Shown: piece after piece, positions 40,077 through 62,424 of the stretch | How the letters are laid out: each line of letters begins with the position of its first letter | How positions within the stretch are numbered: the first letter of the stretch is position 1 | Assembly: GCA_963774265.1 (NCBI GenBank) | Contig: CAVZDU010000008.1 | Span: 160,001 to 224,000, forward strand | DNA from: an uncultured Chloroflexia bacterium | Lineage (GTDB): Bacteria > Chloroflexota > Anaerolineae > CG2-30-64-16 | Direction: 5' to 3' | Length of the DNA stretch: 64,000 nt | Translations under genes and position numbers: made by a program | The notes under the pieces: generated by a model | Database searches by the model: none | Told to the model about the DNA's origin: nothing | What the model saw: the letters and a program-made list of their open reading frames with translations, nothing else

Positions 40077-40724
40077 TTATCGCAAACAACAACGGTCCCG
40101 TGTCATAGTTTGACAGGCTTGAGCTACGTCTGTACTTGCCTCGATCCCGGCGCCAGCCAACAGCTCCGCTGCCAATCCAAGCGGCAGCCCCATGACCGCT
40201 GAATAGCATCCTTGCCAGGAAGCCACGGGCGCAAACCGCGGATCCTGGATGCCGTATGCGCCGGCCTTGTCCAGCGGGTCGCTTGTCTCGACATAGGCCT
40301 CTATTTCGGCGTCAGTGTAGGCACGCATGGTGACATCGGTGGCCGACAGACGCGTCTCGACCCCAGCGCTGTGAATCACGCAGACAGCCGTATAGACGAT
40401 GTGAACTCGATCGCGCAGTGCGGAAAGCATCGCCACCGCCTCCAACGCATCGGCGGGTTTGCCAAGCAGCACACCGTCCACGACAACCAACGTGTCTGCT
40501 GCCAGCACGACTTCACCTGGATGACGATCCGCCACTGCCTGTGCCTTAGCAAAGCAGAGCCGGCACACCAGCACCTCCGGCGGCTCCCCGGACCACGGCG
40601 TCTCGTCCACATCCGCCACATCGACGATGAAGTCCAACCCGAGCGTGGCCAGAAGCTCCCTTCGTCGGGGAGACTTGGAGGCCAGGACAAATTGCGGGCT
40701 TTGAGCCCGGTTGCCATCCCTCAC
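40077..40724 (-). CDS. maf: Maf nucleoside triphosphate pyrophosphatase
   Basis: [21 protein letters not shown] and DKAGAYGIQ motifs. Confidence 0.93.
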
Positions 40725-42610
40725 GCTCGATCCTCGATCACTTCCAATACCTCACACGCCACCTCGTATCGTCCGAAACTCGGCATCAGGTACACCCCCT
40801 GCACCTTGGGCAATTCGCGCAGCTCCAACAGCAACTCCTGCGCCATCTTCACACCTTCCTTACGCCCTTCCGAGCCGGCGCGTTCCATTCTCTGGAGCGC
40901 ACTCTCAGGGATTGTGATGCCCGGCACTTCATTGTGAAGGAAAGACGCGTGACGATGGCTCTGCAAAGGCAAGATGCCGATGAGAACAGGCACGGGGAAG
41001 GGACCGTGCCGCTCCTCATAGAGCTCGAAGAACCGTCTCCACAGCGACGCATCGAAAATCGGCTGCGTCATGGTCAAATGCGCGCCCGCGCTGGCCTTGC
41101 GACGGAAGCGATCGACCTCCCGGACCAGATCCAAGCGCGTGGGATCACTCGCCACCGCGATAGTGAACGACGCGCGTCCCCCGAATGGCTTGCCCGCGCG
41201 ATCCAGCCCTTGATTGAACTGGCTGATGATCTGCGCCAGCCCTATCGAATCAACATCGTAGACCGCGGAGCTGTCGTGTGTATCACCGAGGCTCGGGGGA
41301 TCCCCAGTCAGCGCAATGATGTTGCGAACGCCTAACGCGTGTGCGCCGATAAGATCGGCCTGCAAGCCCATCAGCGACCGATCGCGCGTGGTCAGGTGCA
41401 GGATAGTCTCGATGCCCACCTGCTGCTGAATAAGCACGCACAGGGCCAGCGCACCCATGCGCACGCGCGCCATCGGGCTATCCGCCACATTGACGGCATC
41501 CGCACCATGTTTCTGCGCGACGGCCGCGCCCTCCAGCATCTTTGCAGCGCTAAACCCTCGCGGTGGGTCCACCTCCACGCTCACGACAAACCGGCCTGCG
41601 TGCAGTTTTTTGAGCAGCCCTGTCGGCTCCGGCGCGACCTCATCGCCACCTTCCATACCGGGTGCAGTTACGCGCACCATTGGCAGCGGCACGAGTTCTT
41701 CCGCTCGCCTGGGCTGGCCTCGACCGATGACCTCGTCCAACGCAACGCGCATGGCCTGGATGTGCGCCGGGGTCGTGCCGCAGCACCCGCCCACCAGCGT
41801 CGCGCCCTGCGCCAGGAACTGAGGCACCCGCTCTGCAAAATAAAGCGGAGCTGACGGATAGATCATGCGCTCGCCCGACCGGTAGGGCAGGCCGGCATTG
41901 GGCATGGCCGATAACTTGAGTCCGGTCTCAGCCGCATGCATTTCAGCGATAAAATCGAGCAGGCGCGCTGGCCCCAGCGAGCAGTTGACCCCCGCAACGT
42001 CGACACCAGCAGCAGCAAGCGAGTGTGCCACATCCGCCGGCTTTGCGCCATCACCTGTCACGCCATCATGGCCAAATGTGACCTCTGCCACGATGGGCAG
42101 ATCGGTTGTCTGCCTGCCGACCCGCACGGCGAGGATCAATTCCTGGAGATCGGAGAAAGTCTCCAGAATCAACAGATCCGCACCGGCTTCCCACAAGGCA
42201 GCCATCTGCTCGCCAAACGCAGCCCGGGCCACCTCCACCAGCAGTGCGTTCTCGCGGCGGATGCGCTTGCCTGACGGACCGATCGAGCCGGCAATCCAGA
42301 CGGACCGACCGCTGATCTCACGCGCCTCGCGCGCCAGTTTCACGCCACGGAAATTGATGTCTCGTACGCGACCTTCGAGCCCATAGTCGACCAAACGCGG
42401 TCCGGACGCGCCGAACGTATTGCTTTGGATGATTTCTGCGCCTGCTCGGATATAGGCAAGGTGAATGTCGCGCACCCAATCCGGCTGCTCCAGGTTCAGC
42501 ACGTCCAGGCATTGGTCGAGCCGCGCGCCCTGAGCGTGCAACATGGTGCCCATCGCACCATCGCCTAGCAGCGGACCCTGTGCGAGACGGGCCAGAAAGG
42601 GATGATCCAT
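40721..42610 (-). CDS. yitJ: Bifunctional homocysteine S-methyltransferase / methylenetetrahydrofolate reductase
   Basis: True start ATG 42610 (AGGAG RBS; MDHPFL); DGAMGT, GVNC and GGCCGTTP motifs, then MTHFR part EVDPP, TGDP, TQP. Confidence 0.9.
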
Positions 42611-42742
42611 GCAGTCTCCTATTGGTCCGGCGATTATAGCATCTGGCTTGCGCCGCGCCAATTGCCACCCCCCATGAAGGGTGCTATAATCGCAGCGCAC
42701 TGCTTCTCTACCGGCCGTCATCATTTCGCCCCGGAGGTTGCC

Positions 42743-44041
42743 ATGAGTCGACGAGGGACGCGCCTGCTGGCATGGTTGGTGGTCCTTGCATTGAGCCTGA
42801 CCTTCGCTGCCTTGAACGCCGCCTCGACGCCAGCTGCAGCCCAATCCGCCACTCCGGCAGCCAATACCGCTCCCGCAACCGGCGCAACACCTGAGGCAAC
42901 CGCAGGCACACCGGGTACGCCGACGCCAACCCGAACCCCAACGCTTACGCCTACCCCGACTGCAACTCTCACAGAGCTGCAGGCGCAAATCGTGCTGGCA
43001 CAGACCTTCCTGGACGGGAAGGACTATGAGAGCGCCGCGGACCTCTTTGCTGAAATCCTGGCTGACAACCGCGGTAACCCGGAAGCGCTGGCAGGATTGA
43101 AGGCGGCGTTGGATGGCCAGGCAGCTCACATGGCCACAATGATTGCGCCGCTGCCAACTGAGGCGCCAACGGCTGCACCTGAAGCTGTAGCCCCGACCCT
43201 GGCAGAGACGACGCGCGCGAAAGTGCTCGATATCAGCGGCACGGTGCTGGCCGCGCTGGCGGCCGTGGTGTTGCTCTACTTTGCGGCAGCCTTGCTGCGG
43301 TGGCTCTTGGCTGCGCTGCGCGAGCTTTGGTACACACGCATTCTCCCGTTGCTTAACCGCCCCGCCGTGCCGCCTGGCTTTCTGATCGGCGAGTTCAACA
43401 ATTTGGTTGGTGCCGATGCCGAGGGTGCAGCACGTGTTGTGCCGCTGGCCATGACCGAAAAGCTGATCGCATGGAACCGGCTCGTTCAGGACAAACAAGT
43501 GCCCGTTGAGATGGCGCCGGCCCTGGACCTGGGCCCCATGGCGTGGATCAAAGTGCTGTGGAGTTGGATCTTGCCGCCCGCGCGCGGCTACCGCGTCACC
43601 GGCACCCTGCTGAATGGATCGGCCGGCGCGTTCCAGTTGGCCGTGCAACGCACCGACCTGGGGCACAACATCGTCGATCGCAGCACGATCTTCGAGCGAC
43701 GCTCCCCGTCTTCCGAGGAGGCTTTTCGGCTGATGGCGGGAGAAGCAGCCAAATGGCTGGTTAAGCCGGCCGACATGGAGGCTGACAAAGCGGTGGCGGC
43801 AGCCAAGCGTGCGGTGGGCGATGGCACAGCCCTATCAACGAGCGAGGTCTTCGACCAGGCGCTCGATCTGCTTTCGCCCGTGCGACAGCAGATCAATCAA
43901 GGATTGGTCGATTACGCTGACGCGCGCCAACGCTTGCGCCAGGCCGAAGCAATGGTTGCACAGTTGCCCAGCGCCTCAGAACTACGCGCTGAGTTGACGA
44001 AGGTGATTGGGAGCCTGCGCAAATCAGTTCCTGGGGGTTGA
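42743..44041 (+). CDS. Hypothetical membrane protein (signal peptide, Pro/Thr linker, TPR-like helix pair, TM, C-terminal domain)
   Basis: GGAGG + ATG 42743; TGCTATAAT at 42682-42690 upstream; composition of the ORF. Confidence 0.7.
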
Positions 44042-47912: not shown

Positions 47913-49007
47913 ATGACCGTTGCTTGCCCTGGCAGGCAGCATTTGCGATGGATTGTCGCAGCAGGCCTGGCGTGTCTGCTCTTTGTCGCGCTGGTCGCCG
48001 GCGCCAACGCCCAGGCGGGCGACAATTCCACCTGTCTTGGCTGCCATACGACACCCGGGTTGAGCGTTGAGCTCGCCAGTGGCGAAACCTTGCCCCTTAT
48101 CATCGACCCCCAAGTCTACGGGGCGTCCGTGCACGCCAGTCAGACCTGTACATCTTGCCACACGAACATTGATGGTTACCCGCACCCGAAAGTAACCGCG
48201 GGCGACCGTCGTTCGTTTCAGATGGAACGCTACCAGCAATGCCGGAGTTGTCACGAGGATCAATACAGGCAGTCGCTGGACAGCAACCATGCGCGGGAAC
48301 TGGCGGCCGGTAATCGCAATGCGGCTATCTGCACCGACTGTCACGGCGCACACAACGTGACCAAAGCCGATTCGCCGCGACAGAAAGTCTCCACCACCTG
48401 CCAAAAATGCCACAGTGCGATTTACGATCAGTACGCAACGAGCATTCATGGCGCGGCCTTGCTGGATGACAGCAACCCGGACGTGCCAACGTGCACCAAT
48501 TGCCACGGCGCACACACGCAGGAAGACCCGACCACCGCGGCCTTCCGTCTGAAGTCGCCCAACATCTGCGGCGACTGTCATGCCAACGCGGCGCTGATGC
48601 AAAAGTATGGCATCTCGACGCAGGTCTTCACTACCTACGTGGCTGACTTCCACGGCACGACCGTGACTTTGTTTGAGCGCCAGCACCCTGACCAGCCGAC
48701 CAACAAGGCCGTCTGCACGGATTGCCACGGCGTGCACAACATCGCGCCGGTCACAGGCGAAAAGACCGAGGTAGTCAAGCAGAACCTGCTGGTGACCTGT
48801 CAACGCTGTCACCCCGAAGCCACGGCAAACTTCCCGGATAGTTGGGTGGGCCACTTTGTACCGAGCCCCACCAATCAGCCGTTGGTGTATTACGTCAACC
48901 TTTTCTACAAGATCCTTATCCCAGGTGTGATCGGTGCCATGCTGCTATTTGTCGGCCTTGATCTTGTGAGCCGGATCGTGCGTCGCACCCGGCGGAAGGA
49001 GGCGTGA
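47913..49007 (+). CDS. Nine-heme c-type cytochrome with C-terminal membrane anchor (CbcL periplasmic-domain-like)
   Basis: Signal peptide; 9 CxxCH motifs (CLGCH, CTSCH, CRSCH, CTDCH, CQKCH, CTNCH, CGDCH, CTDCH, CQRCH); C-terminal TM. Confidence 0.9.
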   Translation: MTVACPGRQHLRWIVAAGLACLLFVALVAGANAQAGDNSTCLGCHTTPGLSVELASGETLPLIIDPQVYGASVHASQTCTSCHTNIDGYPHPKVTAGDRRSFQMERYQQCRSCHEDQYRQSLDSNHARELAAGNRNAAICTDCHGAHNVTKADSPRQKVSTTCQKCHSAIYDQYATSIHGAALLDDSNPDVPTCTNCHGAHTQEDPTTAAFRLKSPNICGDCHANAALMQKYGISTQVFTTYVADFHGTTVTLFERQHPDQPTNKAVCTDCHGVHNIAPVTGEKTEVVKQNLLVTCQRCHPEATANFPDSWVGHFVPSPTNQPLVYYVNLFYKILIPGVIGAMLLFVGLDLVSRIVRRTRRKEA

Positions 49008-49008
49008 G

Positions 49009-50691
49009 ATGGCAACACAACAAATGACCGACAGTCATGCCTCCAATAAGTACTACGATCGCTTCACCGTTGTGCAGCGCATTGAGCATTTCGTCTTAAT
49101 CCTCACCTTCTCAACCTTGGCCATCACTGGTCTGCCGCAGAAGTTCGTGGGCAACGCGTTTGCCGAAGGGATGATCGCGGTCCTGGGTGGCATCGAGGTG
49201 GTGCGCATCATCCACCGCATCGCCGCCATCGGCATCGTGATTCAAAGCGTCTACCACGTTCTGGTTCTCGGTTACAAGGTCTGGGTGCGCCGAACCGAAA
49301 TGACGATGCTGCCCGGCCTCAAGGACGTCACCGATGCGGTCGACGTGGTCCGCTACAACCTGGGCCTCACCAAGGACCATCCCAAAATGCCCCGTTACAA
49401 CTTCGGAGAGAAGGTGGAGTACTGGGCGATGGTTTGGGGCACTGTCATGATGGCCATCACAGGGTTCATGTTGTGGAATCCCATCGCCGCTTCGCGTTTT
49501 CTGCCCGGGCAGGCTATCCCGGCGGCCAAGGCCGCTCACGGGGCTGAGGCGCTCCTTGCGGTGCTGGCGATCCTCATCTGGCACTTCTATAACGTGCACG
49601 TAAAGTCGCTCAACAAGAGCATGTTCAACGGCAAGATGGCGCATCACCAAATGGAAGAGGAACACGGCGCGGAACTCCATCAGCGCGTCGCCGGTCTCGC
49701 GCGCCCCGCCCCAAGCCCGGAGGGCGTCCACCACCGTGAACGTATCTATCTGCCCATCGCGATTGTCCTGTCGCTCGTTCTGGGTCTCGGCCTCTTCTGG
49801 TTCGCCACTTTCGAGGAGACGGCCATCGCCACGTTGCCTGCGCAGGCGACCCGGGTACCCGCATTCTCGCCGCTAGCGCCCACTCCCGAGCCCACGAGCG
49901 CGCCACGGGTGGTTGCAGCGTCAATCCCGCACCCAATCGAGGGACAGGAACAGTGTGAGACGTGTCACGGGATCAACGCCATGAAACCCTTCCCCGTTGA
50001 CCACGTAGGGCGTTCCAACGAGTCATGTACGGTCTGCCATCTGCCTGGCCCAACGCCTGAGCCAGGCGCAACCGCCGAGAACGGCGCGGCTGCGGGCGGT
50101 CCCGGAGCCATCCCGGCCAATCATGATCTGACCAGCGACACGTACAAGGACTGCACGACCTGTCATGGATCGGGCAAAATCAAGCCGTATCCTGCGAACC
50201 ACGAGGCTTTCCCACAGGACAACTGTACGGCGTGCCACAAGCCGGCGGGCGAGGGCGCCAGTACCTCGACGGGCGGCGCAACGGGCGATACCGGTGCGAC
50301 CGGGGAAACCGCGGGTGGTCCGAAACCCGTGCCTGCCAACCACGATCTGACTAGCGACACGTACAAGGACTGCACGACCTGTCATGGATCGGGCAAAATC
50401 AAGCCGTACCCCGCGAACCACGAGGCTTTCCCACAGGACAACTGTACGGCGTGCCACAAGCCGGCGGGCGAGGGCGCCAGTACCTCGACGGGCGGCGCAA
50501 CGGGCGATACCGGTGCGACCGGGGAAACCGCGGGTGGTCCGAAACCCGTGCCTGCCAACCACGATCTGACTAGCGACACGTACAAGGACTGCACGACCTG
50601 TCATGGATCGGGCAAAATCAAGCCGTACCCCGCGAACCACGAGGCTTTCCCACAGGACAACTGTACGGCGTGCCACAAGCCGGCAGAGTAA
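49009..50691 (+). CDS. FdnI/HydC-type di-heme cytochrome b fused to an 8-heme c-type tail
   Basis: QRIEH, ITGLP, IHRIAA, YNFGEKVEYW, AHGAEA and WHFYNVH motifs; extra TM; 8 CxxCH (CETCH, CTVCH, 3x CTTCH/CTACH). Confidence 0.9.
   Translation: MATQQMTDSHASNKYYDRFTVVQRIEHFVLILTFSTLAITGLPQKFVGNAFAEGMIAVLGGIEVVRIIHRIAAIGIVIQSVYHVLVLGYKVWVRRTEMTMLPGLKDVTDAVDVVRYNLGLTKDHPKMPRYNFGEKVEYWAMVWGTVMMAITGFMLWNPIAASRFLPGQAIPAAKAAHGAEALLAVLAILIWHFYNVHVKSLNKSMFNGKMAHHQMEEEHGAELHQRVAGLARPAPSPEGVHHRERIYLPIAIVLSLVLGLGLFWFATFEETAIATLPAQATRVPAFSPLAPTPEPTSAPRVVAASIPHPIEGQEQCETCHGINAMKPFPVDHVGRSNESCTVCHLPGPTPEPGATAENGAAAGGPGAIPANHDLTSDTYKDCTTCHGSGKIKPYPANHEAFPQDNCTACHKPAGEGASTSTGGATGDTGATGETAGGPKPVPANHDLTSDTYKDCTTCHGSGKIKPYPANHEAFPQDNCTACHKPAGEGASTSTGGATGDTGATGETAGGPKPVPANHDLTSDTYKDCTTCHGSGKIKPYPANHEAFPQDNCTACHKPAE
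50113..50684 (+). repeat. 219-bp in-frame tandem repeat (~2.6 copies), each copy a di-heme module
   Basis: PANHDLTSDTYKDCTTCHGSGKIKPYPANHEAFPQDNCTACHKPA starts at about 50113, 50332 and 50551; copy 1 differs by a few synonymous changes. Confidence 0.95.
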
Positions 50692-51988: not shown

Positions 51989-53089
51989 ATGAATTCAAGA
52001 GAACGCGTTCTTCGCGCCCTATCGCGCACTGGTCTGCCGGACCGGGCGCCGCTCCAGTTTGACCTGTCGCGCACCCTGGCCGAACAATTCGCCGCCAAAT
52101 ATGGGTTGGCGCCTCATTTCACCACATCCTACTACGAGGATGTGACCTATCGACTCTCCAACAACGGCCTGCGAGTCGCAATGGGCAGCGACTGCGTAAT
52201 CGTTGGCGCCAGCCTGCCGCGCGGCTACCAGCATCCAGTCGACGAAGGCGGCCTCATCATCAACGAATTCGGTATGAAGATGCGCGAGGGGGCGATCTAC
52301 ATGGAGGTGGTTGTCCACCCGCTGGCCCACGTGCAGAGCGCGGCCGAAATCGAGGCATTCCCCTTCCCCGATCCCCTGGCTGAAGGCCGATACGACGACG
52401 CGGTGTGCGACATCGCAAAGTTCAAGGGCGAATACTTCGTCATCGGCGATGTGGAGCTGACGATGTTCGACATGATGCAGCAGCTTGTCGGGCTGGAGAA
52501 GCTCCTCATCGACATGGCACAGGGCGCGGAGTACCTGGAACCATTGATGGACAAGTGCCGGGTATTTGCGACGGAGATCGGCAAAAGGCTGGTGAGCCTC
52601 GGCGTCGATGCGGTGTGGACCGGCGATGACTTCGGCGCCCAGAATGGGATGTTGATCTCCCCGCGCATGTGGCGCCGCTACTTTAAGGATCGCTATCGCC
52701 AGATCTATGCGGACTTCAAGGCCGTCAATCCTAACCTAATCATCTGCCAACACTGCGACGGAGCCGTCGCACCCATCCTGAACGACTGGATCGAGGTGGG
52801 ATTGGAAGTGTTCAACCCGGTGCAGCCAAACGTGCCCGGCCACGAGCCGGAAGATCTCAAGAGCAAATTCGGCGACCGGCTGTCCTTCTGGGGCGCGATT
52901 GACCAGCAGAGACTACTTCCGTTCGGCACGCCGGAGCAGATCGAAGAGGATGTGAGGACGAAAATCCAGGTCCTGGGCCGTGGCGGTGGCTACATGGTGT
53001 CGCCCGCGCACATCATCCAGGGCGATACGTCGGTCGAGAATGTTGAGGCCTTCATTGCCGCCGTGAAGAAACATGGCGCGTACGCCTGA
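51989..53089 (+). CDS. URO-D superfamily protein (MtaA/CmuA-like methyltransferase-type)
   Basis: MNSRERV, GDDFG.Q...LISP..WR, HCDG, NPVQP, FWGAIDQQ..LPFGTPE and GGGY..SPAH motifs. Confidence 0.85.
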   Translation: MNSRERVLRALSRTGLPDRAPLQFDLSRTLAEQFAAKYGLAPHFTTSYYEDVTYRLSNNGLRVAMGSDCVIVGASLPRGYQHPVDEGGLIINEFGMKMREGAIYMEVVVHPLAHVQSAAEIEAFPFPDPLAEGRYDDAVCDIAKFKGEYFVIGDVELTMFDMMQQLVGLEKLLIDMAQGAEYLEPLMDKCRVFATEIGKRLVSLGVDAVWTGDDFGAQNGMLISPRMWRRYFKDRYRQIYADFKAVNPNLIICQHCDGAVAPILNDWIEVGLEVFNPVQPNVPGHEPEDLKSKFGDRLSFWGAIDQQRLLPFGTPEQIEEDVRTKIQVLGRGGGYMVSPAHIIQGDTSVENVEAFIAAVKKHGAYA

Positions 53090-55447: not shown

Positions 55448-57020
55448 TTACGACAGCGCCACACCGGCCGCATCGGCTGCGGCCTGAACCACCGCGCGCG
55501 AGCGAATCAACTCGACGAGCGCCTCAATATCCGGCGTTGTCTCGCGGTCATGTTCGAGGAATGACACCGTGCGGCGGACTTCTCGGTACGCCGCTGCCGA
55601 ACCGCGCCCCAGCCGGTCCGGCCCATCTTCACGCAGATCAATCGCCTGGGCGGCAGTCATTAACTCGATGGCCAAGACGTGGCGTACGTTCTCCAGGATC
55701 TCCAGCGTGTGCCGTGCAGCGTTTGCGCCCATGCTCACGTGATCTTCCTGGTTGGCGGAAGACGGAATAGAATCGACACTGTCCGGATGGGCGAGGGTCT
55801 TGTTGTCCGAGACCAGTGCGGCCGCAGTGTATTGCACCATCATCAGCCCGCCGTCCAGCCCGCTATTGCGCGCGAGCATGGCGGGCAGCCCGCCGCTCAG
55901 CTCGGGTGTAAGGAGTCGGAAGATGCGGCGCTCGGCGATGTCAGCGACCTCAGCCATCGTGATTCCGAGCAGGTCGAGCCACAAGGCCGGCCCCTGCCCG
56001 TGGAAGTTGCCACCGGAGAGCGCGCGGAACGAACCATCCTTCGTCGGGAAGATCAGCGGATTGTCAGTAACCGCATTAATGGCGGTGGTGAAGCGCTCCC
56101 GTACAAACGCAAGGGCATCAAGCGACGGGCCTAACACCTGGGGTGTGCAGCGGAGACTATATGCATCCTGAACGCGTCCTACAGCGGAGTCGACCAGTCG
56201 ACTCCCTGCAGTCAGTGCGCGAATGTGAGAAGCCACGCTGCGCTGGCCTGGCTGTCCGCTAGCTTCCTGGATATCGGGATCGAACGCGGTGGATAACCCG
56301 GTCAACGCCTCTAATGAGAGCGCGGCGCCAATCTGCGCGTGAGCAAGAAGGTTCTGAGCCTCGTCCACCGCCAAAGCACCGCAGGCAGCCATGAAGTCGA
56401 TGCCGTTGGAGAGCGCCAGCCCCTCCTTCGCCTGGAGCACCGGGCGTTCGATTCCACGCGCGGCGCATAGCTTCCGCGCCATCGAGCAACTCCCCGCCGT
56501 ACCACGCCTGGCCGCTGTAGCCGCCATCGGGCGCGTCCCCATCCCGGGACAGGACGACGGCTATGTGTGCGAGCGGTGCAAGGTCGCCGCTCGCCCCAAG
56601 CGATCCCTTGGCCGGAACAAGGGGCGTCACGCCCGCGTTCAGCATGTCAACGAGCGTCTGCGCGATGAGCGGACGCACGCCAGAATGGCCTCGCGCCAAC
56701 ATGTTCGCACGGATGGTCATCATGGCGCGCACGATCTCTTGCGCCAGAGGCTGGCCGACTCCGACCACGCACAGGACGACGAGGTTGCGGGAGAGTTGCC
56801 GGGCTTCCGCAGGGCTGATCTGGCGGTTGGCGAGTGAGCCGAAGCCTGTGTTGACGCCGTAAATGACGCGGCCTTGCCCCTCTATGGCATCGACCACCCA
56901 CCAGTGGCTGGCATTCATGCGTGCCCGGGCGGGCTCGCTCAATGGCGCGACGGTTGTGCGGTCGCGGGCAATCGCCGCCACCTGCTCGATAGTAAGGCTT
57001 CCGCCGTTCAGTTCGATCAT
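55448..57020 (-). CDS. hutH: MIO-dependent aromatic amino acid ammonia-lyase, HutH-like with atypical specificity residues; frameshift near 56456
   Basis: YGVNTGFG, GSLGASGDLAPL (MIO), KEGLALSNG, QDAYSLRC, GGNFHG and SANQEDHVSMG motifs; ORFs 56259-57059 and 55448-56542 join. Confidence 0.85.
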
Positions 57021-57027
57021 ATGCACC

Positions 57028-58278
57028 TCATTTCTGATCACGTTTGAGCACGCGGCCACGCTTGATCATGCGCTCGACTGCGTTGCTCCCCAGTCGATAA
57101 ATCACGTCCTCGAACGTGGGCAGCCGCCAAATTTGCAGGTCGGCCACCTGACCCGGCACGATCGTTCCGCGATCGGTCAGCCCGAGGCTCCGCGCGCCGC
57201 CGATGGTCGCGGCGAGCAGCGCCTCTTCGGGTGAGAAGCGATACAACCGGCATGCGAGCTGCATGACGAACTGCATCGACTCGACCCAGCATCCGGGACA
57301 CAGGTCGGTTGCAAGAGCCAGCGTCACGCCCTCAGCCAGGAGCATACGCGCGTCGAACGGCCTCTGATGTGCCACGGCCCAGTCGAGCGCGGGCATGACG
57401 ACGCCGACCACGCCCTTCGCAGCCAGCGCACGAGCAGCTTGCGGCGTCGTGTAGTTCAGATGATCGGCCGAAACGACGCCCATCTCCGCAGCCAGGAACG
57501 CGCCACCGATGTCCGAGTAAGCATCGGTATGGACCTTCAGGCGCAAACCTGCGTCCCTCGCACACTTCAGAATGCGCCGCGATTCGGTTACGGTGTAGTA
57601 CCCGTCGTCGAGATACACATCACAGAACTCAGCCAGGCCGCGCGCTGCGACCTCGGGGATCATCTCATCGACGATGCTGTCGATATAGCGATCACGCGGC
57701 CTGTCGGGGAGAAAATCGTGTGCGCCGAGGAACGTGTTGACCACGTCGGCCGGACCGGCGCGGTTCAGCATCCGGCCCACCTCGAGCATCCGCAGTTCAT
57801 CCGCCGTAGTGAGCCCATAGCCGCTTTTCACTTCAACTGTGGTCGTGCCACTCCAGAACATGCCATTCAGCCGCGCCCGTGCGCTTTCAAAAAGCTCGTC
57901 CGCCGATGCGGCTCGGGTCATGGCAACTGTCGCAAGGATGCCGACGGGGATGCCTAGGTCTCGCACTTCAGCCGGGGTGCGCGTCATGCGCGCCGCGTAT
58001 TCCTGCACGCGCGAGCCGCCAAAAATAAGATGGGTGTGGCTGTCAACGAATCCGGGTGCGACGACACAGCCCCTCGCGTCCACGCACTCGGCGGTGGTGA
58101 GGTCGACCGAGCGCTCCACCGCGACGCGCGTTCCCGCAGCAAGGATCCGGTCGCCTGCGATGGCAATCGCGCCGTCCGATATACGGCCAATAAGGTCGCC
58201 GCCGCGGCTGACGCAGGTCAGGATGAGCCCACCCTGGACAAGCAGGTCGGCCCGCCGGCCGGGCGTTTGTTGGGTCAA
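57028..58278 (-). CDS. hutI: Imidazolonepropionase-like amidohydrolase
   Basis: PGFVDSHTH, GTTTVEVKSGYGL, TFLGAH, SADHL and ATD..PG motifs; AGGAG + TTG 58278. Confidence 0.85.
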   Translation of the reverse strand: MTQQTPGRRADLLVQGGLILTCVSRGGDLIGRISDGAIAIAGDRILAAGTRVAVERSVDLTTAECVDARGCVVAPGFVDSHTHLIFGGSRVQEYAARMTRTPAEVRDLGIPVGILATVAMTRAASADELFESARARLNGMFWSGTTTVEVKSGYGLTTADELRMLEVGRMLNRAGPADVVNTFLGAHDFLPDRPRDRYIDSIVDEMIPEVAARGLAEFCDVYLDDGYYTVTESRRILKCARDAGLRLKVHTDAYSDIGGAFLAAEMGVVSADHLNYTTPQAARALAAKGVVGVVMPALDWAVAHQRPFDARMLLAEGVTLALATDLCPGCWVESMQFVMQLACRLYRFSPEEALLAATIGGARSLGLTDRGTIVPGQVADLQIWRLPTFEDVIYRLGSNAVERMIKRGRVLKRDQK

Positions 58279-58353
58279 TTTGCAGCTCCTGCGAGTATGC
58301 TTCGCGCCTCGCCTGCACTCCGTAGAGGCTAGGCGCGAAGGCCACACTCTCGA

Positions 58354-60082
58354 CTAGCCCCGCGTATGTGCGGCCCGGCGATCGACAGTCCCGTCCTCCG
58401 GCCCAAAGGTGGCGGTGGGGCTCCACCAGAGCGGCACCTGGATGCTGTCCTGCGTCAGCGGCCCCTTGCCCTGGGCAACCTGTCGGGCCATCGGGTAGCC
58501 GGCCTGGGCGTGGCGGATGACGCCGATGCCGGAGTCGGTGGTCAGGGAGGCCTCCAGGCGCAGGTCGGCCTCCTCGCTGCCGTCCGCGATCATGGTGACG
58601 CCGGTGTGCACCGCCTCGCCCATCGAGTAGTTCGCCTGGATCGCGATCAGGTCGCCCATCGCCGCAGTGTTCAGCAGCGCGTTCAGGTACGGCCAGTCGG
58701 AGATCAGGTCGCCGCCGTCGAGCATCTTCTCGGACTCGAAGGTCGGGTTGACGATGGAGCCGGAGTCCAGGTTGTCGCGGGAGAAGCCGACGGGACCCTT
58801 GACCTCGCCCTCGCGGATCAGCCGGTTGACCGCCAGGCCGAACGCCTTGCGCTCGCCGAAGCCCAGGTAGCAGACCCGCGCGGGCAGCCCCTCGATGGGC
58901 AGCGCCTTGCGCGCCAGCTTGATCCACTTCACGGTCGTCGCGTCGTGCGGGAACATCTCCAGGACGAGGTCGTCCAGCCGGGCCAGGTCGCTCGCCTCGC
59001 CCGAGAGGCAGGTCCAGCGGAATGGGCCGCGGCCCATGAGGAACAAGGGCGGATGTACGCGGCGACGAAGCCGGGGATCCTCATCGCCTCTTCTTCCGGC
59101 ATGCCCGCGTCGCGACATTCCTTGCGGATGCTGGTGCCGTACTCGAACACCTGCACCCCGGCCGCGCTGAAGCCGATCATCGCGGTGAGCTGCCGCTTCA
59201 TCGAGTCCGCGCTTCCTCCAGGTACGCCACGCGGTCGCGCGGCGCGCAGCCTCCGCGACTGCCACGGTGTGGCCGGCCGCGATGTAGGAGATCGGGTCGT
59301 GGCACGGGCACATCTCGGTGACGATGTCCGGCCTCCAGCCCAGCTCCAGCGCGCGCGGGAACAGCTCGGCCGCGTTGCCGTGCAGACCGATGCCGAGGCT
59401 GCGGCCCTCGGCCTTGGCCTTCTCCGCCAGCGCGATGCCCTCGTCCAGCGAGCCCACCTGCACGTCCAGGAACTTCTTGCTGAATGCGGATGGGGATGAT
59501 GTCCGGGTTGGCATCCACCACCAGGCAGACGCCGCCGTGCATCGTCATGGCGCGCGGCTGGTTCGCGCCCATGCCGCCCAGGCCGGCGGTGAAGAGGATG
59601 CGACCGACCAGCGAGCCGCCGAAGTGCTGCTCGCCGATCGCGCCCAGCGTCTCGAAGGTGCCCTGGATCACGCCCTGCGTGCCGATGTACTCCCACGGGC
59701 CGGCGGTGTACTGCGCGAACATCGTGAGGTTCTTGTCCTGCAGATCGTAGAAGATGGGCCAGGTCGCCTTCATGATGTTGGTGTTGGCCATCACCACGCG
59801 CGGCGCCAGCCGGTGCGTCTTGAAGATCGCGACCGGCATGCCCGACTGGATGGCCAGCGTCTCGTCGTTCTCCAGGTTCAGCAGCGCATCGACGATGGCG
59901 TGGTACGATTCCCAGTTGCGCGCGCACTTGCCGATGCCGCCGTAGATGACGAGCCGCTCCGGCCGCTCGGCGTTCTCCATGTTGTTTTCGAGCATGCGCA
60001 GCAGCGATTCCTGCTTCCAGCCCTTGCAGCGCAGCGTCGGGCCGCGCTGGGCCTTGACCGAGTAGAGGATTTCGTTCTTCAC
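58354..60082 (-). CDS. hutU: Urocanate hydratase-like protein (divergent); four frameshifts at about 59478, 59245, 59208, 59048
   Basis: LRMLENN, LVIYGGIG, QSG.PV, YIGTQG..QGT.ET, GLGGMG, GNAAE, GRGPFRW, GLPARVC, RD.LDSGS and DWP.LNALLN spread over three frames; AAGGAG + GTG 60082. Confidence 0.85.
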
Positions 60083-61011
60083 TTGTGGTGCTCCTTCAAA
60101 TGCCGCAAGAATCCTGGTCGCATCAAGCGGGCGAGCTCGATGATCTGTTCGGTCGAAAAGTCGTGCACCTGCAGGTAGTACCGGGCGACCTCTTCCAGCA
60201 CGCCCAGCGGCACGGGGCCGACCAGCTCGGCGCCCGCGATCGTCACGCCATACCGCGCCGCCTCGGGTCGGATGGTCTCCAGCACGCGCGGGATCGGGGT
60301 CTTGGTATAGTTGATCAGGTTCATCGACACCTGCACCAGGCCCTTGTCCTCCAGCGCCAGCCCCATCGCGCGGACGTAGCGGAAGCCGCCGCTGACGTGA
60401 CGCACGGCCTTGGCGATGTGGTCGGCGATGCTGACATCTGTCGTCCGCAGGTTGACGTTGAAGGCGACCAGCGGGAAGCGAGCGCCGGTCACAGTGCGCC
60501 GGATTTGGCGTTGAAGACCGCCGGACCCTCGTCGGGCGCCCACTCCGGCCGCGCCAGCTTAGCCGGGAGCGCCTCGTATTCGCCCTTGCGGATGTCGGGC
60601 AAGCTCTTTCGCTCGGGGCGGGTCGCGGCGTCCTCGTAGTAGTAGACCGGCACATCCAGTTCGCCAACAAAACGTCCGAAACGCCGGCCAATCTCGACAG
60701 CCTCCGCGGTCTCCACGCCGCGCACAGGGATGAAAGCGGCGACGTCGACCGCACCCTGGCGTGGGTGGCTGCCATGATGTTGGGCCATGTCAATCAGCTC
60801 GAAGGCTTTCACGGCCAGCCGCTTCGTCGCTTCGAGCACGTCCTCCGGTTCGCCCAGGTACGTAAAGACTGAACGGTTGTGATCGGGGTCGCTGGAATAG
60901 TCGATGAGCCGTACGCCCGGGATCGGCGCGAACCTCAGCGGCCACTTGCTCGACGACCGCCAGATCTCGACCCTCGCTGATGTTCGGCTCGCACAGGATG
61001 ATCTTACGCAT
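60079..61011 (-). CDS. ftcD: Glutamate formiminotransferase; frameshifts near 60925 and 60496
   Basis: CEPNISEGRD, DPDHNRSV, HPRQGAVD, VTGAR.PLVAFNVNL, VQVSMNL and ELVG motifs; stop overlaps the hutU start (GTGA). Confidence 0.88.
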
Positions 61012-61023
61012 GGTCAATTCCTT

Positions 61024-61617
61024 TCACGGGCGGCGCGATGCGGGTCCGAGCGACGCAGCACGCGTGCGGATGTCTCCGGCAACGACTTCGTCCTTGATGC
61101 CCGGCAGATTGATGTCGACGTTGGCAAGGCAGCCCAGCAGGCCCGCACGGGCAAGATAACCGGCGCTCTGGAGATCTGAGAGTGCGCGCGGGTTCGAGCG
61201 ACCCTCCAACTGCGCAACCAGGGTCACTACCGCAGCGCAGCGCTCCGCATTATACAGGGGTACGCGGGTGGCATAGACGGTGGCCTCCTGGACTGCAACG
61301 CGCCGGGCATCTTTCTCTACGTCCGTGGCCTTTGGCAGGCGGAATGCGGCCATGACTGCGTCAAAGGATCGAGCATCCTCCTCAGCGCCGGCCAAGAGCG
61401 CCTCGCGCAACTCACCAGCAGCTTGGGCGATCCCCTGGTAGAAGGTTTCCGGCTCCGCTGCGTTGGGGCCAACAGAAAGCCGCGCGACCATAGCAACCAG
61501 GGCTGCCGCCATCGCACCCGCGACAGCAGACGCCGTGCCGCCGCCGGTCGAGTTGTCGAGGGGATCAAGCACCCGGTGAAAAGCCGCCATTTGCTCATCG
61601 GTGATAACGTTGGTCAA
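61024..61617 (-). CDS. fchA: Formiminotetrahydrofolate cyclodeaminase / methenyl-THF cyclohydrolase family
   Basis: GGGTASA..GAMAAALVAMVA, D...F..VM.A.RLPK, VP, SNP...SD and NVDINL motifs; AGGAGG + TTG 61617. Confidence 0.85.
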   Translation of the reverse strand: MTNVITDEQMAAFHRVLDPLDNSTGGGTASAVAGAMAAALVAMVARLSVGPNAAEPETFYQGIAQAAGELREALLAGAEEDARSFDAVMAAFRLPKATDVEKDARRVAVQEATVYATRVPLYNAERCAAVVTLVAQLEGRSNPRALSDLQSAGYLARAGLLGCLANVDINLPGIKDEVVAGDIRTRAASLGPASRRP

Positions 61618-61636
61618 GTGAGTCCTCCTGGAATGA

Positions 61637-62362
61637 TCATTCTTGAGGGGAATCAGTCGCGTCGACGCAAACGGCCAGCGCATACTGTTGACGGTAGAGG
61701 CCGCGATACCAGACCGCGGGCCGATGGGGTGCAGTGTAGGTCAAACGGGAGATCACAATCGCAGGGGTGTTTGGTGCGACCTGGAGCAGCGCGGCATCCT
61801 CCTCATCCAGCATCTGCGCCTCGATCTCCACGACCGCGCGCAGGAGGGGCAGCTCCGAGCGGGTGACCAGGATATCGTGGATGGAAGACTGAGTCAAATC
61901 CTCGTCGAGGAGCTCCGGGCAGAGCGATCGCGGCAAGTAGCGCTCGGAATATCCCTCTACAGCATCGCCCGCCAATCGGAGCCGTGCAATGTGTATGAGG
62001 GGTTCGCCCAACGGCAACGCAAGTCGCTCGGCGATAGTCATCGAGGCAGGGATGGTTTCCTTGGTGATCACACGAAAAGTGACAGGAAGGCCGCCGTTTG
62101 AATCGGTGAAACGAAACGGCAGCGCATGCGGGTGCCCCGCGCTGACGAACGAGCCGCTCCCCTGCACCGTGTAGATCAAGCCTTCTGCGCCCAGTTGCTC
62201 GATGGCACGTCGCACAGTTCCCCGCGCCAGGCCGTAGGTCTGCATCAGGTCATCTTCAGTGGGAAGCCGCGTGTTTGGCGGCAACTCGCCCGCCAGAATG
62301 CGCGTGCGCAGAAGCTGAAGCAGTTGACGATATTTGGGAAGAGCACCAGACGTCAGTTTCAT
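61637..62362 (-). CDS. GntR/HutC-subfamily regulator with UTRA domain
   Basis: PKYRQL, LPTEDDL, ARGTVRRA and QGSGSFV motifs; UTRA C-terminus; first gene of the hut-like operon. Confidence 0.9.
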   Translation of the reverse strand: MKLTSGALPKYRQLLQLLRTRILAGELPPNTRLPTEDDLMQTYGLARGTVRRAIEQLGAEGLIYTVQGSGSFVSAGHPHALPFRFTDSNGGLPVTFRVITKETIPASMTIAERLALPLGEPLIHIARLRLAGDAVEGYSERYLPRSLCPELLDEDLTQSSIHDILVTRSELPLLRAVVEIEAQMLDEEDAALLQVAPNTPAIVISRLTYTAPHRPAVWYRGLYRQQYALAVCVDATDSPQE

Positions 62363-62385
62363 GCACAGATCCGAAACATATAGTC

Positions 62386-62424
62386 ATCTATATAAATCAT
62401 ATCAAAAGAAGGAAGAAATGTCAA
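62386..62424 (-). promoter_or_regulatory. Sigma70 promoter of the hut-like operon with overlapping candidate operator
   Basis: Minus strand TTGACA (62424-19), 17-bp spacer, TATGAT (62401-396); imperfect palindrome ATCTATATAAAT (62386-97). Confidence 0.7.

Follow-up and report, generated by a model that had tools for sequence, protein, structure and literature searches.

A paralogous hut-like operon in an uncultured Chloroflexota bacterium is a candidate for N-tau-methylhistidine catabolism with a folate-linked ending

The window analysed here is a 64,000-nucleotide stretch of contig CAVZDU010000008.1 (positions 160,001 to 224,000 of the forward strand) from an uncultured Chloroflexia bacterium, and our subject is a group of six genes in it that resemble the histidine utilization (hut) genes. 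An earlier note on this DNA had described a complete operon running from a regulator to an ammonia-lyase. Pfam and NCBIfam matches bear out that gene content and that order: the six genes span 55448 to 62362 of the minus strand and are separated by short or overlapping junctions.

61637..62362, minus strand: GntR-family, HutC-like regulator, an intact open reading frame (ORF) of 241 aa
61024..61683, minus strand: cyclodeaminase-type protein (formiminotetrahydrofolate; FTCD_C), an intact ORF with a Pfam FTCD_C match of 160.3 bits over residues 35-210
60079..61017, minus strand: glutamate formiminotransferase (FT) of FtcD type, with Pfam FTCD_N and FTCD matches in three frames, carried by ORFs 60790-61017, 60489-60839 and 60079-60543
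58354..60082, minus strand: urocanase-family hydratase of a deviant clade, with Pfam Urocanase_N, Urocanase and Urocanase_C matches in three frames
57028..58347, minus strand: HutI-like amidohydrolase of deviant type (HTDA; DLCPG-CW), an intact ORF with Pfam Amidohydro_1/3 matches
55448..57059, minus strand: MIO ammonia-lyase with LC in place of the 'SH' motif, in two ORFs (55448-56542 and 56259-57059) with Lyase_aromatic (Pfam) matches

The FTCD_C match of the cyclodeaminase far exceeds its gathering score of 24.5, and the same protein stays under the cut-off of the FchA cyclohydrolase model (126.5 bits, cut-off 275). The two scoring pieces of FT reach 199 and 156 bits on TIGR02024, under the cut-off of 221, because this copy is split; the intact homologue of locus L035 reaches 417 bits. 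The GntR/HutC-like protein is likely a repressor, and its top NCBIfam model is HutC TIGR02018, at 116.8 bits under a cut-off of 220.

The three ring-handling enzymes carry all the motif changes that had been quoted for the lyase, urocanase and HutI, and structures 1x87, 2fkn and 2bb0 have the canonical strings at the same places. Their catalytic scaffolds are intact, as had also been claimed: GSLGASGD in the lyase, GLGGMG in the urocanase, and the metal ligands of HutI. In the urocanase, translation of the window gives AQYTAGPW, TEMCPCHD and QANYSMG, with the NAD-binding GLGGMG unchanged, at positions where the HutU structures 1x87 and 2fkn align with GQMTAGSW, TDQTSAHD and HHGGGVG.

These motifs mark a widespread family. 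A scan of species genomes (one genome per species) by patterns including TEMCPCHD and QANYSMGE returned 442 stretches, 415 of which encode a relative. Locus counts below use the best 80 of these 415 relatives, 40 of them with full 10-kb flanks. The 80 loci fall in six phyla (Chloroflexota, Desulfobacterota, Spirochaetota, Actinomycetota, Bacillota and that of a Thermoplasmata archaeon), and their urocanases are 70-93% identical to P0001, an intact homologue of 576 aa. YGTSIR and RDNLD are each retained in 80 loci, QANYSMG and QYTA[AG]PW each in 77 and EMCPCHD in 76. The earlier note had named sequencing artefacts as one way in which its reading would fail; since the motifs are kept in intact homologues, that explanation of the changes was rejected.

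We then placed the clade among its paralogues by model scores and by phylogeny. P0001 scores 622.6 bits on the hutU model TIGR01228 (cut-off 375), where the canonical representative P0123 reaches 930. On the thiourocanate hydratase model NF058530 it scores 581.5, below the cut-off of 930, and on the S-methyl thiourocanate hydratase model NF058531 612.8, below the cut-off of 880. P0126 passes the latter (894 against 880), and the motif positions altered in the clade also differ in P0126, suggesting that the deviant motifs mark substrate specificity. A quick, midpoint-rooted maximum-likelihood tree was built from 33 rows: 5 deviant proteins, 11 locus ORFs and 17 of 44 representatives (500-700 aa, chosen by eye for unscrambled motifs), the remaining 27 being excluded. 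In this tree the deviant clade is monophyletic with 100% SH-aLRT and joins the S-methyl-thiourocanate and thiourocanate-like paralogues at 99%, apart from canonical HutU.

The lyase shows a comparable pattern. Its strings NLVVLCVVGVG and GSLGASGD contain an intact Ala-Ser-Gly MIO triad, and Leu-Cys stands where the aromatic binding region would have its Ser-His motif. An intact homologue scores 576 bits on the hutH model (cut-off 539). The related loci encode 54 lyase-family ORFs that are 470 aa or longer. The MIO triad is present in 50, and 49 of these 50 lack the 'SH' histidine (31 Cys, 17 Asp, 1 Ser); the sole SH lyase, in L038, adjoins a canonical-type urocanase and HutI. PMC11432326 attributes histidine recognition by histidine ammonia-lyase (HAL) to the SH motif and states in its abstract that mutating its His abolished canonical HAL activity. 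A smaller or non-histidine residue at HAL's contact with the distal ring nitrogen would, as far as sequence can tell, fit an N-tau-methyl substrate.

Consistent changes were found in HutI. The window protein scores 361.4 bits on TIGR01224, above the cut-off of 298, and its metal ligands HxH, H, H and D are intact (DSHTH, KVH, ADH and TDL). Its strings KVHTDAYSD, DSHTH and ATDLCPG differ from structure 2bb0 in that HADE has become HTDA and DFNPGS has become DLCPGCW, so that it lacks both the Glu/Gln three residues past the beta-5 His and the NPGS loop of 2bb0 and 2oof. Across 70 HutI proteins linked to the cluster, that position is taken by Ala (66), Cys (3) or Gly (1), and in none by Glu or Gln. 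Replacement of the hydrogen-bonding Glu/Gln of HutI by Ala would again be compatible with an N-tau-methyl substrate.

Is this operon simply the organism's histidine pathway? A separate canonical set, which the earlier note had proposed to look for, is present in the same genome: a canonical urocanase on contig C1, a lyase with the SH motif at C1:136821-138230, and a canonical HutI at C1:850697-851857 (437 bits). These genes are scattered rather than clustered. All five complete carrier genomes encode another urocanase type, and four of the five have a second FT, which adjoins the other urocanase in three; canonical-type urocanase-FT-HutI strings are found in G303 and G305. We also tallied urocanases over a sample of 301 genomes from the phylum, with the unpublished G145 and G173 included in the tally. 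A match was obtained in 170 genomes, and among the matches listed only the genome of the window (G000) exceeds 51% identity to P0001, 29 weaker matches being unlisted. The reading that the operon is a paralogue of the ordinary hut genes, and not the normal histidine route of this organism, is supported.

A functional name is available from within the clade. UniRef calls P0367, labelled Crassaminicella thermophila by NCBI, an 'N(tele)-methylurocanate hydratase'; the protein has QYTAAPW, EMCPCHD, YGTSIRK, RDNLD and QANYSMG and is 72% identical to P0001 over 565 residues. Because a clade member this close to P0001 is so named, we favour the view that the operon probably serves N-tau(tele)-methylhistidine catabolism as a sister of the hut route. 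The earlier suggestion of a ring-substituted histidine such as N-methylhistidine is thus supported, and a histidine methylated on a ring nitrogen is the leading substrate candidate, on the strength of a named protein that has all the deviant motifs. Among 120 listed homologues of the Lysinibacillus copy, which made up our survey of names, the deviant clade is common in soil Bacillales. The ESM Atlas returned only generic 'urocanate hydratase' clusters, and a literature search that most subscription journals lay beyond found no paper on the clade, on an FT-linked methylhistidine route or on a link between MttB and urocanate, the single paper matching both of these terms being unrelated.

How might such a route proceed? 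Family membership, motifs and gene order suggest the following steps. The MIO lyase, with Cys for the SH histidine, would remove ammonia to give N-tau-methylurocanate, which the NAD-dependent urocanase paralogue would hydrate to an N-methylated imidazolone propionate. The HutI paralogue would open the ring to yield N-(N'-methylformimidoyl)-L-glutamate. FT would then move the one-carbon unit to tetrahydrofolate (THF) and free glutamate, and the cyclodeaminase would produce 5,10-methenyl-THF and an amine, which would be methylamine if the methyl group is still attached. To our knowledge, transfer of an N-methylformimino group to THF with release of methylamine is not known for FT/cyclodeaminase enzymes, and this part of the scheme is our inference.

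The partner genes travel with the urocanase across the related loci. A deviant HutI lies beside it in 75 of 80 loci (39 of the 40 with full flanks), FT in 58 (34 of 40), the cyclodeaminase in 56 (34 of 40) and an MIO lyase in 54 (27 of 40); all five genes occur together in 39 of 80 loci and in 23 of the 40. A homologue of the regulator (at least 45% identity) adjoins the cluster in 15 of 80. Cluster-linked FT proteins are 60-66% identical across phyla, compared with 41-46% identity to the second FT that those genomes carry. The Lysinibacillus loci have two M20 hydrolases and no FT, and L044 has HutF; the final step is thus variable, as is also the case for ordinary hut pathways.

Several relatives of the operon are of note in their own right. 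P0121 represents a sister lineage at 59% identity to P0001 that shares the EMCPCHD, YGTSIRK and RDNLD core and departs in other motifs (GQYTAGPW, QA..SMG); its specificity may be different again. The Clostridiaceae genome G303 encodes two deviant urocanases about 15 kb apart (C1:3679998-3681692 and C1:3695387-3697081), and Crassaminicella profunda has two near-identical entries as well. Locus L082, whose record title is Micromonospora provocatoris, has a layout like that of the Lysinibacillus loci L076 and L080, with positions matching up to HutI and similar identities, and may reflect either contamination of the record or a transfer in the recent past. In two mixed gene strings (L038:3339-12992 and L034:2970-12992), a canonical-type urocanase and HutI, joined in L038 by an SH lyase, lie upstream of a cyclodeaminase, FT, deviant urocanase and deviant HutI. 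One FT/cyclodeaminase pair may serve both routes in such strings.

Other neighbours differ between lineages. In 13 loci, the immediate neighbour of the deviant urocanase or FT belongs to one MttB subfamily with at least 50% identity across Desulfobacterota and Actinomycetota (L046, L047, L049, L051, L055, L056, L058, L065-L067, L069, L070 and L072; for example L055:11738-13306). L049 carries a tandem array of three different MttB genes, and in L065 and L066 a corrinoid (B12-binding) protein adjoins MttB. Known MttB relatives demethylate quaternary amines. In the Desulfobacterota loci L047, L055, L056 and L058, a molybdopterin oxidoreductase of about 700 aa lies next to the cluster-linked MttB (for example L055:1765-3873). 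It reached no specific NCBIfam cut-off, and a proposed role in C-S cleavage was dropped. Beside it, L055 and L056 encode an AhpD/CMD-like protein for which the sole model passed is a generic one of a peroxidase-related subfamily. M20 peptidases and ABC transporters, the latter of Opp and amino-acid types, recur in related loci. Finally, in three loci of Actinomycetota the neighbours of the deviant urocanase and HutI include lyase-family proteins with GSVGQ[AS]-D in place of the MIO triad, a feature shared with ergothionase:

L037:3319-4818, non-MIO lyase
L037:12966-14411, non-MIO lyase
L044:12869-14446, non-MIO lyase
L048:12803-14389, non-MIO lyase

L044 belongs to a member of the Solirubrobacteraceae and has a HutF equivalog upstream; on its downstream side it encodes one SDR, one GcvT-domain and one creatinase-like M24 protein.

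Taking these neighbours together with FT, it is possible, and we offer it tentatively, that the methylhistidine module is tied in most genomes to its own FT and cyclodeaminase, methylamine being freed, and that in Desulfobacterota and Actinomycetota an embedded MttB/corrinoid system strips the methyl group. Within this combined reading, the MttB target could be an imidazolium or amidinium intermediate.

A number of observations weigh against a dedicated N-tau-methylhistidine route. The functional name is the label of one source and applies to 1 of 120 listed proteins, the other legible names being 'urocanate hydratase'. NCBIfam equivalog cut-offs are passed for hutU (622 against 375), hutI (361 against 298) and, by the intact homologue, hutH (576 against 539). 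FT is of the ordinary FtcD type and is the sole formiminoglutamate (FIGLU)-processing enzyme found in a genome estimated at 84% completeness, and in L038 a single FT/cyclodeaminase pair lies between canonical and deviant enzymes; because of these two facts, the window FT may accept plain formiminoglutamate. The MttB and corrinoid proteins, non-MIO lyases, Opp transporters and M20 peptidases of other phyla hint at other or more complex feedstocks.

That last point leads to a different modified histidine, such as N-pi-methylhistidine, a ring-methylated histidine betaine or a betaine-demethylation product, handled by the same architecture. The direct MttB linkage in 13 loci, some with an adjoining corrinoid protein, the pairing of deviant urocanase and HutI with non-MIO lyases in L037, L044 and L048, and the lineage-dependent replacement of the SH histidine by Cys or Asp all speak for it. 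In the discussion of preprint 10.64898/2026.04.22.720169, non-MIO lyases are said to need a trimethylammonium group, and the preprint reports a lyase for N-pi-methyl histidine betaine. Nevertheless, the urocanases are at least 70% identical across all loci and share one motif set, which argues for one substrate at the hydratase step; the sole functional name in the clade is N(tele)-methylurocanate hydratase; and neither an MttB nor a corrinoid protein nor a non-MIO lyase is encoded in the window, the 25 MttB-family matches of the genome, many of them split pieces, all lying outside the window's contig. We hold this alternative to be unlikely, and note that the tau and pi positions of the substituent are not distinguishable from sequence alone. 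Substrates substituted at C2 (ergothioneine, 2-oxohistidine, diphthamide) were rejected, since by inference they would leave no formimino group for FT or HutF. FT and cyclodeaminase are an established ending of histidine catabolism, and the operon could instead be a divergent hut operon of unchanged function, breaking down plain L-histidine by the known FT branch, its motif changes being neutral or an adaptation to cofactor or oxygen. This would agree with the equivalog cut-offs passed for hutU, hutI, hutH and FtcD, the HutC-like regulator, the existence of canonical-type urocanase-FT-HutI strings, and the finding of no FIGLU enzyme in the genome other than the window FT. Against it stand the coexisting canonical set (in five of five complete genomes and the genome of the window, and within the same gene string in L034 and L038), the gap between 622 and 930 bits on the hutU model, motif changes at positions that are altered in a paralogue of different specificity, and rarity, with 1 of 301 phylum genomes compared with 170 that have an ordinary urocanase. 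The SH histidine, whose mutation is stated in the abstract of PMC11432326 to have abolished HAL activity, is also missing. We judge a plain-histidine operon very improbable.

The remaining alternative concerns this copy only. Frame-aware alignment of intact homologues with the window DNA placed seven single-base frameshifts across the urocanase, FT and lyase, or about one per kb over ~6.9 kb:

near 59479, 59241, 59206 and 59045: four frameshifts in the urocanase
near 60924 and 60497: two frameshifts in FT
near 56456: one frameshift in the lyase

Seven frameshifts in three of six genes could mean that the array is a set of decaying pseudogenes, inactive in this strain whatever the family does elsewhere. 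Their density does exceed that in 12 control genes, of which 3 are split relative to close relatives, at 2 distinct places, and this too counts against a working route in the window. On the other hand, the alignment revealed no in-frame stop codon or large deletion in the cluster, and the C-terminal 231 aa of the urocanase are 98% identical to the intact P0001. Splitting also affects other genes of the genome, as its other urocanase on contig C1 lies in at least four frames inside its C-terminal domain and several MttB genes are likewise split. Contigs of relatives at about 90% identity differ by one base at 59045 and 59479 in the frame-restoring direction, a difference that cannot settle whether these are errors. 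The assembly has 10 contigs yet only 84% completeness, a combination typically seen when long-read assemblies are left unpolished. Four sequencing runs that matched the window each had at most 0.10 of the sampled words in common with it. Because other genes are also split, a 98%-identical intact homologue exists, the relatives' contigs restore the frame at two sites and so few contigs come with such low completeness, the seven frameshifts are probably assembly errors, and decay of the array in this strain seems rather improbable.

How does the proposed N-tau-methylhistidine route compare with known systems? The breakdown of N-tau-methylhistidine by bacteria was reportedly described by Beliaeva, Atac and Seebeck in 2022, in a Bacillales-type organism whose HutH, HutU and HutI paralogues are said to act in order on the ring-N-methylated substrate and whose route is said to end in hydrolysis. 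Our operon resembles it in the HutH-HutU-HutI paralogue trio and in the clade member named N(tele)-methylurocanate hydratase, and differs in having FT and cyclodeaminase, here and in 34 of the 40 full-flank loci, where the 2022 route is reportedly hydrolytic. With the canonical hut pathway ending in FT, the operon shares gene families and chemistry, the MIO triad, the NAD glycine motif, the HutI metal ligands and an FT and cyclodeaminase of ordinary type. In contrast to that pathway, its lyase lacks the SH histidine, the HutU motifs GQMTAGSW, TDQTSAHD and HHGGGVG are replaced, HutI has HxD followed by Ala, and canonical copies coexist in the same genomes. The thiourocanate and S-methyl thiourocanate hydratases of ergothioneine catabolism are likewise urocanase paralogues with altered pockets, which change at shared positions and group with the clade in the tree. 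However, P0001 is far under their cut-offs, the residues in the motifs differ, and the C2 sulfur substituent of thiourocanate would be expected to yield no formimino group for FT.

The earlier note had presented the operon as a candidate new pathway, which overstates the case, since the family of its ring-handling enzymes has been named before. For the window itself, the result is mostly a correct identification of that family. The variant is real and only moderately new, of modest interest for its ending in folate, for its occurrence in many anaerobes and for the methyltransferase genes embedded in some loci. Since the NCBIfam cut-offs are passed, annotation calls the cluster ordinary hut genes, which inflates the tally of histidine catabolism and overlooks methylhistidine catabolism in about 415 species genomes. 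Many carrier species are anaerobes of soil, sediment and digesters. If the folate ending holds, they would convert methylated histidine from decaying protein or dipeptides into glutamate together with a one-carbon unit bound to folate. In some lineages the MttB/corrinoid genes within the operon point to a putative methyl-transfer step; were this correct, it would add a new substrate class to the MttB family and make methylated histidines a one-carbon source for anaerobes.

Three further features of the window deserve mention. A URO-D family ORF lies 2.4 kb from the cluster, and its best NCBIfam matches, which are sub-threshold, are to methylcobamide methyltransferases of the MtaA/CmuA type. 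The other two are a fused one-carbon enzyme and a pair of adjacent cytochrome ORFs, the second of which is fused to a cytochrome b561-type membrane domain and has MtrC/MtrF-like repeats.

51989-53089, plus strand: URO-D family ORF
40721-43666, minus strand: ORF of 981 aa with fused homocysteine S-methyltransferase and methylenetetrahydrofolate reductase domains
47913-50691, plus strand: two multihaem cytochrome c ORFs

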